Assembly (NCBI RefSeq): GCF_055900595.2
Contig: NZ_CM148325.1
Strand: one strand, 5' to 3'
DNA: 64,000 nt
In this document: in pieces, positions 53,480-55,265 of the stretch
Numbering within the stretch: the first letter of the stretch is position 1
How the letters are laid out: each line of letters begins with the position of its first letter
Position numbers and translations under genes: made by a program
Notes under the pieces: model-generated
Database searches by the model: none
What the model was told of the DNA's origin: nothing
The model's input: the letters and a program-made list of their open reading frames with translations, nothing else

Positions 53480-53545
53480 AACCGGACATGGATCCCGGAA
53501 AATTTTCATAAATAGCGAAAACGCGCGAGGTCGACGCCCCGTAAC
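53480..53545. other. cos site (cosN cohesive-end region)
   Basis: Minus-strand GGGCGTCGACCTCGCGCGTTTTCGCTATTTATGAAAATTTTCCGG closely matches the lambda left end GGGCGGCGACCTCGCGGGTTTTCGCTATTTATGAAAATTTTCCGG; cosN 12-mer at 53528-53539, about 210 bp upstream of Nu1. Confidence 0.85.
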
Positions 53546-53690
53546 CTGTTGGATCGCCGGAAAGGACCCGAAAAAAACGAGAATAATTATCACTTACAGC
53601 AAGAATCGAATCTGATCTATTCTGATGCTTGCTATTATGTGCCGGCACAAGTGCGTCGTTTACCGTCATTTCACACAGAGGCATCATCAA

Positions 53691-53942
53691 ATGAAAATCA
53701 GAAATATTCTCGCTATCTCCCTTGCAACATCATCCTTCAGTTGCCTGGCATTTAAACCCTCGCCCAATGTGCTACCAGGACCAACGAATCAACTAACTGC
53801 GGTAGAAAGTAAAATTATCGGACATTTTTATGCCCCACACAGTGCATTACCCGGAACAACCATCACAGGGACATGTGACGCCTCCCCCATTCCGGGATGC
53901 ACCTGTCCGTTTTGTACTATGCTGCGTAGCCAAAACCGATAA
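53691..53942 (+). CDS. Small secreted cysteine-rich protein, 83 aa
   Basis: ORF track 53625..53942; start set at MKIRNILAISLATSSFSCLA (signal peptide) with an AGAGG Shine-Dalgarno; C-terminus GTCDASPIPGCTCPFCT has five Cys in 17 residues; opposite strand to the late operon. Confidence 0.45.
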   Translation: MKIRNILAISLATSSFSCLAFKPSPNVLPGPTNQLTAVESKIIGHFYAPHSALPGTTITGTCDASPIPGCTCPFCTMLRSQNR

Positions 53943-54306
53943 CATCCGCATTTACCTGGTATTCCATGATGAGTTCACGCAGCGACTGATAGAGTAAGGA
54001 AAGATGGTTAGCAAAAGCAAAGGCGCATTGCCGCCGCATGCTGCAGGCATTGCAACAGACGAGAGCAGGTATTTTTGACCAGTTGGAAAACTGCCAGCAT
54101 ACTTTGCCCGAGCATATCGCCATCTCATCGGAAACCAGTGCAACTCTTATTCATCGGGTTACACCAGAGAAAAAGAAGAAATGAACAGTGAGGCGTTGTG
54201 TGGCATACAACGCCTTCTTCCATCATTTCTCGTCAGCCATGACAAAAATATAACCGCTGGCTCTTTCATTTTTCTCCTGCTTCCAGCCCCTCTCTACCTG
54301 GAAGCA

Positions 54307-54633
54307 TCAGGGACGTGATGGCGTAAAGATAAATTGTCTCTTCACTCCCTGACGGGGACTATTCTTTTCAAATCTCCATTTCGCCATGGCCTTCACCACT
54401 TCATCACGAAACAAATTATGAGGCTCTGAGCGGAGAAAAACGATCCGTGTCACAGTCCCGTCAGCACCAATATCGAACTTAACCTCAACCAGCCCCTTGA
54501 TATAATTTGCTGCAGCATATTCCGGATATCGTGGATACACCGTCACTAATTGCCGGGGCTCATCAGCTTTTTGCTGCGAGCATCCCACTGCCAGGGCAGA
54601 TAACAGAAAAAGTAGTGAAAGGCGTCTTTTCAT
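54307..54633 (-). CDS. Lipoprotein with TonB C-terminal-domain-like region, at the bor position between Rz and cos
   Basis: ORF track 54307..54687; start set at MKRRLSLLFLLSALAVGCSQQ (lipobox); VTVYPRYPEYAAANYIKGLVEVKFDIGADGTVTRIVFLRS...AMAKWRFE resembles a TonB-C fold pattern. Confidence 0.5.
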   Translation of the reverse strand: MKRRLSLLFLLSALAVGCSQQKADEPRQLVTVYPRYPEYAAANYIKGLVEVKFDIGADGTVTRIVFLRSEPHNLFRDEVVKAMAKWRFEKNSPRQGVKRQFIFTPSRP

Positions 54634-55265
54634 TTTTATTCCTACGGGTCTTATTCTGACAATATATCCTGTGTTCCAGACTGCCATATCACCACATCCT
54701 GTGCCATTATCTGACTCACATTACATACATCGCATCAGGATACAGTAGTAGCACTTTCTGTAATACAGCTTCCGGTTTCTTCCACCATCGCACCGGACTG
54801 GCGAGCATGAGGGACAAACCCGCGAACCATAAACGCGGTAAAAACCCGGTGTGCATCGTTTTTGATTATTCCCGCACACTCGCGCAGAAGGAGTTCCCCG
54901 TCGGGCTACGGTCATGGTTAATGCGGGAATACAGCGACGATACAGCGCATGATGTGTCAGGCTTGAATACCTTTATCCGTTAAAAGGGATATCAGTTAAG
55001 TTATCCCGTGTAGGGTATAAGCCATTATCAAAGCCACTCTGTAGGGAGTGGCTTTTGTAATGGCAATAAAAAAGCCCCGCGAATGCGAGGCTAAATCCAG
55101 GTATTTTTAATGACTGGCTCTTATCTCAACGCAGCCCCTTACCGCGCGCCAGATGCTCAATATCAAGCATCAGCAATGAGATGTTTAATCTGGATTCACT
55201 CCAGAAGTGATCACCACCCTGTCTACAGAGCCAGATGTGAAGGATGATGAGTAAAATTATCGCTA

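Follow-up and report, generated by a model that had tools for sequence, protein, structure and literature searches.

Bor and Iss are small lipoproteins encoded between Rz and cos. Other small phage lipoproteins, Cor (phi80, N15, HK022) and Llp (T5), are described in passages of PMC11436027 and bioRxiv 10.64898/2026.03.26.714494 as residing in the inner leaflet of the outer membrane and disabling a TonB-dependent receptor pathway. According to passages of PMC9841981, TonB's periplasmic domain impairs TonB-dependent import when overexpressed (Howard et al. 2001, cited therein), engineered TonB fragments inhibit FecA/FhuA-dependent transport, and a TonB-box peptide lowers colicin killing and phi80 infection. 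Herein, we describe an interval that, like bor/iss, encodes a small lipoprotein between Rz and cos, in this case one with a TonB C-terminal domain, together with a secreted mini-protein with a four-cysteine motif on the opposite strand. The interval is best explained as two independent accessory genes (morons) in a phage-21-like lambdoid prophage of E. coli. Our literature search turned up no publication dealing with the mini-protein or with any TonB-domain lipoprotein encoded by a phage, and PADLOC contained no model matching either protein of this interval or the Cor-like protein of the same prophage.

Position and surroundings of the two genes

In the window, the whole stretch of 64,000 nucleotides that was analyzed, the ORF list places both genes in the gap that separates the lysis genes from the DNA-packaging site. 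The sequence of cosN (aggtcgacgccc, 53528-53539) is the reverse complement of the lambda/21-type cohesive end, and position 53540 corresponds to the right-hand end of the phage 21 record. The cosQ site (AGGACCC, the complement of GGGTCCT) was placed at 53563-53569 by transfer of the "cos subsite; cosQ" feature annotated in phage 21 (L001 24-30). On one side lies Nu1, the terminase small subunit (52806-53315, minus strand; ORF and RefSeq annotation). On the other side, the lysis cassette ends with the Rz i-spanin (55266-55748, minus strand), an ORF annotated by RefSeq as "lysis protein", in which the Rz1 ORF is embedded (55307-55513). The location between cos and Rz, as given in a preliminary description of this DNA, is thus right by mapping onto the annotated phage 21. 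The same description spoke of the position of bor, a framing that does not hold for the TonB-domain gene. Unlike bor, this gene lies on the strand of the late genes (lysis, Nu1, A), and it occurs together with bor/iss in phage 21 and in UPEC NU14; it therefore does not replace bor.

Promoter scans upstream of both genes, by consensus and by PWM, revealed no sigma-70 promoter above the background of the window. Upstream of the TonB-domain module, two minus-strand hairpins stand in tandem (55021-55092). One is a canonical intrinsic terminator found by a terminator scan, consisting of a stem at 55092-55073 and U6 (dG -14.7 kcal/mol); the other is a strong hairpin at 55064-55021 (dG -26.8 kcal/mol, z -7.8). 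Many E. coli genomes share a block whose end lies near 55063. A further minus-strand hairpin, with no U tract, directly follows the stop codon of the TonB-domain gene (54278-54306; dG -16.7 kcal/mol, z -3.0). The plus-strand unit is followed by a 12-bp terminator-like hairpin at 54190-54216 (plus strand; dG -16.4 kcal/mol, z -3.3), convergent with the TonB-domain gene. An Rfam scan gave only sub-threshold matches at chance level.

Upstream of the Cys-rich gene, at a distance of about 100 nt, stands a palindrome, CGAGAATAATTATCA (53578-53592), that agrees with the 7-1-7 Fur-box consensus at 12 of 14 positions; a 14/14 match is present at the same place in lambda and in a divergent prophage (L007). 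This palindrome was not found upstream of homologues of the Cys gene outside cos contexts. Since it is confined to cos contexts, regulation by Fur was rejected as a property of the gene family, and the palindrome may serve regulation or be linked to cos.

Each gene assorts independently of the other, as the 70% allele of the Cys gene is found where the TonB gene is missing, and the 70% allele of the TonB gene where the Cys gene is missing. The Cys gene is found in about 22% of complete E. coli genomes, and the TonB-domain gene in about 30%, including O157:H7 and ExPEC lineages. The TonB-domain gene follows the lysis genes and precedes terminase, on the same strand each time, in phage 21, a Klebsiella phage and a prophage of O157:H7 whose packaging module is different. 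In phage-21-type phages, it travels with sitABCD, a TonB-independent importer of iron and manganese. On an island in Salmonella, the Cys gene points in the same direction as bor and omptin. Elsewhere in the window, the prophage carries a gene for a Cor-like lipoprotein (30469-30714; phrog_1119, E = 8e-7), for which tblastn against phages gave no match, and a J tail-tip protein whose C-terminus, considered as a pointer to the receptor, is only 51% identical to the best phage match, with the last 30 residues unmatched.

The TonB-domain lipoprotein

The lipoprotein gene (54307-54633, minus strand) encodes 108 amino acids, and a ribosome-binding site, AGGA, lies 6 nt upstream. A longer ORF of 126 amino acids starts at 54687 on the same strand; this form is used neither by RefSeq, which annotates a "TonB family protein", nor in phage 21, where the product is a "TonB C-terminal domain protein". 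The protein begins with MKRRLSLLFLLSALAVGC followed by SQQK. Read from the sequence, its lipoprotein signal peptide (54580-54633, minus strand) ends in the lipobox L-A-V-G-C, with the cysteine at residue 18, and the segment through SQ, with its basic n-region and hydrophobic core, agrees with a PROSITE PS51257-type lipobox ([LVI..][ASTVI][GAS]C). The G-C of the lipobox is invariant in E. coli and Klebsiella homologues, and the lipobox is kept in three clades, including Klebsiella phages. A residue other than Asp at position +2 directs lipoproteins to the outer membrane (the +2 rule). The Ser at this position thus predicts sorting to the outer membrane. The dN/dS of the gene is 0.12, and the gene is confirmed to be real rather than a chance ORF.

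Residues 24-103 (54325-54564, minus strand) form a TonB C-terminal domain that aligns to residues 151-230 of E. coli TonB, with 38-40% identity over 80 residues. Pfam PF03544 (TonB_C) matches residues 33-102 above its curated threshold (E = 3.2e-13), TIGR01352 scores 48.6 bits against a cut-off of 27.1, and a phmmer search of the PDB returned solved C-terminal domains (CTDs) of E. coli TonB over residues 24-103 (E = 2e-14). The AlphaFold2 model reaches a pLDDT of more than 93 over the domain and of 84.7 for the whole protein. When this model was compared with known structures by Foldseek, ranks 1-11 were all TonB or FusB CTDs, among them TonB chains of BtuB and FhuA complexes. The rmsd was 0.9-1.5 Å for ranks 1-10 and 3.2 Å for rank 11, an NMR structure; against 1u07, 2gsk_B and 2grx_C it was 1.0-1.1 Å. 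The TonB-C-like pattern reported in the preliminary description for the mature part of a minus-strand lipoprotein thus belongs to a genuine TonB C-terminal domain behind an LAVGC lipobox. That description had named a predicted structure with no such fold as grounds for abandoning the reading, and the Foldseek comparison found the fold.

The domain retains the β3 strand that pairs with TonB boxes and the hydrophobic core. Of the TonB residues, Y163 and P164 (the YP motif), F180, G186, F202, W213 and F230 are kept, and the equivalent of Y215 is F. Three residues implicated in receptor contact are replaced: R158 by T, Q160 by Y (L in the O157 allele) and R166 by Y, the last of these conserved as Tyr in all phage clades. 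These changes could alter or abolish binding to the TonB box. The protein has neither the N-terminal transmembrane anchor nor the proline-rich spacer of TonB, with only about 8 residues between Cys18 and the domain, and it therefore cannot transduce energy or couple to ExbB/ExbD. The equivalog models for full-length TonB (NF00808x) score it at 46-67 bits against cut-offs of 265-448 bits. A PHROG scan returned only phrog_1267 (E = 2e-40) and phrog_34172. The spanin label of the former ("Rz-like spanin") was rejected, since the protein is a globular TonB_C domain with no C-terminal transmembrane segment and a separate Rz/Rz1 pair is present.

The four-cysteine mini-protein

On the plus strand, opposite to the late genes, a gene at 53691-53942 encodes a protein of 83 amino acids, MKIRNILAISLATSSFSCLAFKPSPN...GTCDASPIPGCTCPFCTMLRSQNR. 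The start at 53691 is a corrected one; a ribosome-binding site, GAGG, lies 9 nt upstream of it, and an in-frame ATG further upstream, at 53625, would give a form of 105 amino acids. Residues 1-20 (53691-53750, plus strand) constitute a Sec signal peptide made of MKIR, the core ILAISLATSSFS and C-L-A before F. This arrangement agrees with the pattern for signal peptidase I (n, h and c regions, small residues at -3 and -1), with cleavage predicted after C-L-A. In the alignment, the sites of most homologues read A-L-A, A-M-A or A-A-A before F, and A20 and F21 are nearly invariant. We also considered a lipoprotein, because members of the E. coli subgroup have an FSC that agrees with PS51257, and rejected it, since distant homologues have A-x-A before F and lack that cysteine. 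Cys18 is found only in the E. coli/Salmonella/Citrobacter subgroup, which makes a lipobox unlikely.

The variable residues 21-59 precede a highly conserved segment, residues 60-80 (53868-53930, plus strand), with the motif G-T-C-x3-P-x2-G-C-x-C-x2-C-x2-L-R-S. Across 23 aligned sequences, C62, G69, C70 and C72 are invariant and C75 is nearly so. Homologues, of which 13 are close and about 25 are distant, measure 79-85 amino acids and are spread across Enterobacterales, as far as Serratia and Pantoea; the most distant retain 28% identity at the same length. The dN/dS is 0.13-0.31, with synonymous sites saturated (pS 0.75-0.9 vs. pN 0.17-0.23). The homology shared with the divergent prophage L007 extends up to the stop codon of the gene and no further. 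In line with the preliminary description, the plus-strand protein has a signal peptide and a C-terminus rich in cysteines, which the alignment shows to be conserved; the small ORF too is conserved, a point on which that description had let its reading depend. The gene is confirmed to be real and not a chance ORF.

Neither the phage 21 record nor either of the two RefSeq records that were inspected (GF4 and NU14) annotates the gene. All three instead annotate small minus-strand ORFs, one of which overlaps the 3' end of the Cys gene. If these ORFs (CPT_21_74 and CPT_21_75 in phage 21, and those of RefSeq) were the true genes, the 83-aa ORF would be spurious. Protein conservation as far as Serratia and Pantoea, saturation of synonymous sites at a pN of about 0.2 and the end of similarity at the stop codon of the Cys gene contradict this reading, and the minus-strand ORFs lie beyond the hairpins that follow the TonB-domain gene. 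A spurious ORF is already refuted and retains next to no probability.

A second small plus-strand ORF of 48 amino acids (54038-54184) matches phrog_4843 (E = 3e-34). Its relatives have 59 amino acids (WP_021525754); in the alignment, a 1-nt insertion shortens it here. No hairpin was found between the two plus-strand ORFs, and from this layout they are probably co-transcribed. Membership of the second ORF in DUF3950 was rejected, with no similarity found.

The mini-protein has no match in Pfam, NCBIfam, PHROG or PDB, and Pfam returned nothing even at E <= 10, whether for the query or for the 23 family members. A profile search against the PDB also gave no match. The AlphaFold2 model is poor (pLDDT 61) and thus lends no structural support to any function.

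Proposed roles and relation to known systems

The best joint explanation pairs a lipoprotein that acts as a TonB-C decoy with a Sec-exported, four-Cys conversion factor, and we give this combination of roles about an even chance of being correct. The lipoprotein is most likely an outer-membrane-tethered decoy that competes with TonB. At the periplasmic face of the outer membrane, a linker of about eight residues would carry a complete TonB C-terminal domain, whose β3 strand would most likely pair with exposed TonB boxes, both those of TonB-dependent transporters and those of colicins being imported. Alternatively, the domain may dimerize with TonB of the host. Through either contact the protein would become a dominant-negative competitor of TonB, shutting off TonB-energized entry of phages such as T1 and phi80, group B colicins, microcins and siderophores. 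Interference with TonB-dependent receptors had been proposed in the preliminary description, and the inhibition of import by overexpressed periplasmic TonB domain is an experimental precedent for it. The gene would be transcribed at least within the Q-antiterminated late transcript, and its expression in the lysogen is possible. Besides the replaced contact residues, the lack of a promoter above background and the lack of a PADLOC match, two further considerations count against the decoy. If the inhibition of TonB were constitutive, the host would be deprived of iron; the gene is nevertheless carried by about 30% of complete E. coli genomes, ExPEC among them. In addition, a gene expressed only late would not protect the lysogen.

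A more far-reaching form of the joint reading, which we regard as rather unlikely, would make the lipoprotein the first natural "TonB decoy", and the mini-protein the founder of a new secreted family of peptides, with disulfides or a metal, that travels on mobile elements of Enterobacterales. Here the captured docking domain of TonB, held beneath the outer membrane, would jam the energy-coupling step common to all TonB-dependent gates, and a single small gene would thereby exclude TonB-dependent phages, group B colicins and microcins broadly. The cost in iron could be offset by sitABCD.

The timing of expression separates the decoy from a tentative alternative, doubtful but deserving consideration, in which the lipoprotein is made with the lysis and morphogenesis proteins and serves the lytic phase with no protection of the lysogen. 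It could then block TonB-dependent entry into the committed cell, or act in a lysis or envelope step, for example via the reported contacts of the TonB CTD with outer-membrane components other than receptors. Such a late function would fit a gene that, in three phage backbones unrelated to one another, immediately follows the lysis cassette on the late strand, with no promoter above background, behind a canonical terminator and a strong hairpin that only an antiterminated polymerase should pass. Strand alone is not decisive, however, and flanking hairpins are typical of moron insulation. The lom gene of lambda lies on the late strand and yet is expressed in lysogens, and cor likewise lies downstream of tail genes. 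The filing of PHROG 1267 (E = 2e-40) under "lysis" also speaks for a late function, but its spanin label conflicts with the identity of the domain, and the window has an Rz/Rz1 pair of its own. It is quite unlikely that the protein never touches the TonB system, as would be the case for a captured scaffold that diverged toward another partner or for a decaying remnant. Decay is excluded by a dN/dS of 0.12, constant length and a constant lipobox. A scaffold for another partner could explain the replaced contact residues (R158, Q160 and R166), and the identity of about 40% both to TonB and between clades points to an old capture. The fold matches also include the complex of the FusB CTD with ferredoxin (9hi3), in which FusB, a TonB homologue, binds ferredoxin directly. 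Against this scaffold stand the retained strand-pairing β3 and hydrophobic core, and the predicted model, which superposes on the receptor-bound conformation (2gsk_B, TM 0.94).

For the mini-protein, we infer that the product is exported by Sec and cut after Ala20, and that the mature form of about 63 residues would comprise a variable N-terminal half, one predicted helix and a four-Cys module that holds either a metal site or a pair of disulfides. Its likeliest role is that of a lysogenic-conversion factor, either periplasmic or released. The toxin-like or bacteriocin-like character suggested by the preliminary description found no backing: the protein is not similar to any toxin or bacteriocin family, and in none of about 10 contexts does a gene for immunity, maturation or export lie nearby. 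Were the protein instead the precursor of a disulfide-rich peptide, secreted as a toxin or signal and built like heat-stable enterotoxins, it would have a signal peptide, a variable pro-region and a conserved Cys-rich C-terminal peptide that is freed outside the cell. The variable residues 21-59 and the conserved residues 60-80 fit this layout. The gene is carried by prophages, a plasmid and an ICE, and in Salmonella it lies beside the virulence-type genes bor and omptin, near a serine-protease autotransporter. Such a precursor is nevertheless improbable, given that the cysteine spacing (C-x7-C-x-C-x2-C) differs from the pattern of STa/guanylin, that Pfam, NCBIfam and PDB hold no toxin-family match and that no processing or export partner was found; within Serratia, moreover, and likewise within Klebsiella, every contig read has the gene alone at a single chromosomal position. 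A bacteriocin or microcin-like peptide would also be small, exported and Cys-containing, and encoded on mobile elements. The Sec signal with its A-x-A site, in place of a double-glycine leader, speaks against it, and no family match was found. In the prophage, island, plasmid, ICE and chromosomal contexts (about 10), no immunity, ABC exporter or maturation gene is adjacent, which argues against a bacteriocin. This context weakly refutes the bacteriocin reading, and we consider it unlikely in the extreme.

If the decoy model is true, susceptibility to TonB-dependent phages, colicins, microcins and siderophore-antibiotic conjugates would be altered in the roughly 30% of complete E. coli genomes with the gene, as would iron acquisition and the outcomes of phage therapy and colicin intervention. 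The Cys-motif protein defines an unannotated family of small secreted proteins, encoded by a conserved and selected gene beside cos that was missed even in the phage 21 record.

Among known systems, the mini-protein shares only its architecture with the STa precursor, namely a length of about 70-85 amino acids, a signal peptide, a variable middle and a conserved Cys-rich C-terminal segment; STa has six cysteines, whereas the mini-protein has four and a conserved TMLRS tail, with no similarity in sequence or Cys pattern. The Cys gene resembles bor in its anti-late orientation next to cos and adjoins bor in Salmonella. A comparison with Bor/Iss lipoproteins had been proposed, and neither the lipoprotein nor the mini-protein matches PF06291 (Bor/Iss).

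The TonB CTD (E. coli residues 150-239; 1u07, 2gsk chain B, 2grx chain C) is homologous to the lipoprotein and has the same fold. In contrast to TonB, the lipoprotein is predicted to be anchored by lipid to the opposite (outer) membrane, is borne by a phage and has no coupling to ExbB/ExbD. The engineered periplasmic TonB fragments mentioned in PMC9841981 (Howard, Herrmann, Stratilo, Braun 2001, cited therein) likewise consist of TonB-C with no energy coupling. These fragments are artificial, soluble and overexpressed, whereas the prophage lipoprotein is natural, diverged and predicted to be lipid-anchored, and its action as a decoy is proposed by analogy. With Cor and Llp it shares its small size, its phage origin and, by prediction, its place in the inner leaflet of the outer membrane; it is not related to them in sequence (the PHROG scan gave no phrog_1119). 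Cor and Llp bind FhuA itself and each disable one receptor. The TonB-domain lipoprotein would target the coupling step shared by all TonB-dependent gates and, if this is true, would represent a mechanistically new form of superinfection exclusion.

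Two accessory genes between cos and Rz

The window carries a lambdoid prophage of E. coli whose late genes, among them lysozyme (55730-56263), Rz/Rz1 (55266-55748), Nu1 (52806-53315) and terminase A (from 52891 downward), are encoded on the minus strand. With 96% identity, the block at 53540-54949 corresponds to the right end of phage 21. According to the annotation of phage 21, the cohesive end falls at 53528-53539 and cosQ at 53563-53569. Thus, the preliminary description was correct in placing two accessory genes between cos and Rz. Both ORFs are present as it described them, with the coordinates of the plus-strand ORF, encoding a Cys-motif mini-protein (the Cys gene), amended to 53691-53942.

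The terminase large-subunit gene (terminase A) is interrupted by an IS66-family element at 48600-51215 (plus strand; TnpA 48600-49277, transposase 49644-51215, 478 bits) and ends prematurely at 51242. Packaging is therefore probably defective in this copy of the prophage; the accessory genes it carries are intact. Elsewhere on the minus strand, a side tail-fibre protein with long collagen-like G-x-y repeats is encoded at 28546-30396. Downstream of the tail-fibre genes, the minus strand at 25880-27520 encodes a protein of 546 aa in which a unit of about 33 aa is repeated six times in tandem, nearly unchanged. It also has a trimeric autotransporter anchor of the YadA type and resembles prophage-borne Eib-type adhesins.

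A palindrome at 53578-53592, just inside cosQ, fits the 7-1-7 consensus of the Fur box (TGATAATnATTATCA). Lambda has a perfect match (TGATAATGATTATCA) near its right end, 37-51 nt away from the cohesive end, as does a divergent E. coli prophage, where the palindrome lies about 135 nt before the Cys gene; in the window and in phage 21 the match is 12/14. The palindrome accompanies cos and not the Cys gene family, and it may be an iron-regulated promoter of the anti-late unit or else an element linked to cos that has gone unrecognised.

The TonB-domain lipoprotein

The minus-strand gene (54307-54633), with AGGA 6 nt upstream, encodes a 108-aa protein that starts MKRRLSLLFLLSALAVGC-SQQK. The TonB-C-like domain claimed for it was borne out. 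The protein matched TonB_C in Pfam (E = 3e-13) and exceeded the curated cut-off of TIGR01352, whereas its scores against all models of full-length TonB stayed far under their cut-offs. In addition, phmmer against the PDB aligned its residues 24-103 with residues 151-230 of E. coli TonB (E = 2e-14). In the AlphaFold2 model pLDDT was above 93 throughout the domain, and the top Foldseek matches were only TonB-type C-terminal domains (rmsd 0.9-1.5 Å for the first ten), including TonB chains from BtuB and FhuA complexes. Structure prediction thus returned the TonB-C fold on which the claim depended.

Compared with E. coli TonB, the lipoprotein keeps the YP motif and the aromatic core but has other residues in place of R158, Q160 and R166. 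All phage clades have Tyr at the position of R166, a residue of TonB reportedly important for contact with the FhuA plug (Pawelek et al. 2006). The N-terminus is a lipoprotein signal (LAVGC) with Ser at +2, for which the +2 rule predicts the outer membrane as destination. The phage protein, with neither the membrane anchor nor the Pro-rich spacer of TonB, is thus a lipoprotein consisting of a TonB domain only and is not itself a TonB.

Comparison of the window allele with a 70%-identical O157:H7 allele gave dN/dS of 0.12. A third clade in Klebsiella prophages (about 40% identical, 111-124 aa) also has the lipobox. Phage 21, the Klebsiella phage and the O157:H7 prophage, the last with a different terminase module, all have the gene on the late strand, directly 3' of the lysis genes. 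The gene is annotated as 'TonB family protein', or in phage 21 as 'TonB C-terminal domain protein'. Its match to PHROG 1267 (E = 2e-40) carries the label 'Rz-like spanin', in our view a mislabel derived from position, given that a separate Rz/Rz1 pair exists in the window.

Ahead of the gene on the late strand stand two structures, a canonical terminator at 55092-55073 and, with z -7.8, a strong hairpin at 55064-55021. A further hairpin follows the gene (54306-54278), and another follows the convergent plus-strand unit (54190-54216). Immediately 5' of the terminator, a conserved 50-aa hydrophobic ORF (55126-55278, minus strand; phrog_11822, E = 4e-38) overlaps the end of Rz, and the 19-mer closest to the Fur consensus anywhere in the window (15/19, at 55243) lies within it.

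The Cys mini-protein family

The Cys gene encodes 83 aa (MKIRNILAISLATSSFSCLAFKPSPN...GTCDASPIPGCTCPFCTMLRSQNR) on the plus strand; GAGG, a ribosome-binding site, lies 9 nt before its start. The protein had no match in Pfam, NCBIfam, PHROGs, PADLOC or the PDB. In a word-indexed search 13 relatives turned up, from E. coli, Salmonella and Citrobacter, and an exhaustive profile search found 31, mostly of 79-85 aa, in Klebsiella, Enterobacter, Serratia, Siccibacter, Pantoea and Salmonella, all annotated as 'hypothetical'. The family is undescribed.

An alignment of 23 sequences upheld both the signal peptide and the Cys-rich C-terminus of the preliminary description: C62, G69, C70 and C72 are invariant, C75 is nearly so, and Phe comes directly after the A-x-A that closes the signal peptide. 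Distant members lack Cys18, the residue that gives the E. coli version its lipobox look. This disfavours a lipoprotein, and cleavage by signal peptidase I after Ala20 is the better reading. The AlphaFold2 model is of low confidence, with a signal helix and helices at 32-46 and at 73-81, the latter starting at the CPFC motif.

The small ORF is also conserved as a coding sequence. Synonymous sites are saturated (pS 0.75-0.9, against pN of about 0.2), dN/dS is 0.13-0.31 where measurable, and DNA similarity between the window and the divergent E. coli prophage is confined to cos and the Cys ORF, ending at the stop codon. The gene is intact and unannotated in the phage 21 record, and equally unannotated in two RefSeq records inspected, where minus-strand ORFs are called instead. 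Such ORFs (window 53917-54269; CPT_21_74 and CPT_21_75 in phage 21) overlap the 3' end of the Cys gene and a plus-strand 59-aa ORF (WP_021525754), which a 1-nt insertion in the window cuts to 48 aa (54038-54184).

Two clusters of E. coli variants (P0003, P0006) are read in the +1 frame from residue 45 or 55 to 66 (…PEQPSQGHVTPP…) and return to frame before PGCTCPFC; these compensated frameshifts keep the C-terminal motif and lose Cys62. Two metagenomic proteins of about 610-630 aa (P0068, P0070), asparagine-rich and eukaryote-like, contain 4-5 repeats of P-[LI]-P-G-C-N-C-P-K-C-T-E-L-R-N, close to the bacterial motif PVPGCxCPFCTMLRS minus the first Cys. These repeats suggest that the motif forms a compact, self-contained Cys module.

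Among 5,426 complete E. coli genomes, the Cys gene (at least 95% identity over the full length) was found in 1,222 and the TonB-domain gene in 1,615, in 391 of these as the divergent allele. A prophage of UPEC NU14 carries the TonB-domain gene together with iss. The two genes also occur apart: a 70% Cys allele adjoins Nu1/cos in prophages without the TonB-domain gene, and the 70% TonB allele is found without the Cys gene.

Possible functions and known systems

We place high confidence in the identities of the two genes, and the combined statement on both is about evenly balanced. For the lipoprotein, the best-supported model is a candidate dominant-negative decoy of TonB, which would act from the periplasmic side of the outer membrane. 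The model draws on the domain identity, the predicted localisation and published inhibition: overexpression of the periplasmic TonB domain inhibits TonB-dependent import, and a TonB-box peptide reduces colicin killing and phi80 infection (PMC9841981). We consider decoy action plausible though somewhat short of an even chance. The lipoprotein might instead have a target other than TonB or act in the late phase only. Neither gene has a sigma-70 promoter above the window background, and a Q-antiterminated late transcript would be the only route of expression for the TonB-domain gene that follows from the anatomy; both genes may also be expressed in the lysogen.

For the mini-protein, any specific function is doubtful. 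A secreted STa-like peptide is a rival reading that its signal peptide and Cys motif would accommodate. The genomic contexts speak against the bacteriocin-like character first proposed. In Salmonella the gene stands in a same-strand cluster with a PPC-domain protein, Bor and an omptin; in Citrobacter it is a lone remnant next to icd, in Serratia and Klebsiella a lone chromosomal gene, and further copies are carried by a K. variicola plasmid and a Salmonella ICE. No partner gene recurs beside it across these and the prophage contexts, which argues against bacteriocin or processed-peptide systems needing immunity or export genes.

Downstream of J, the tail-tip gene, the minus strand encodes a lipoprotein of 81 aa (MKIIVCTFLLFLVSGC...; 30469-30714) that has a weak match to Cor, a family of superinfection-exclusion proteins (phrog_1119, E = 8e-7); searching the phage collection with it by tblastn gave no match. 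This Cor-like protein hints that the prophage may use or block FhuA, a pathway for which Cor is the sole entry in a 2024 review of superinfection exclusion (PMC11436027). In phage-21-type phages with the TonB-domain gene, the TonB-independent iron/manganese ABC importer sitABCD follows the tail fibres (phage 21 OL657228, 21967-24502; PhiR47_2 PV340567, 41857-45306); it is absent from the corresponding place in the window prophage. A functional pairing of sitABCD with a TonB inhibitor is possible. Our literature search found no functional study of the TonB-domain gene, which is already annotated by name and belongs in kind with the envelope morons and exclusion lipoproteins of prophages.
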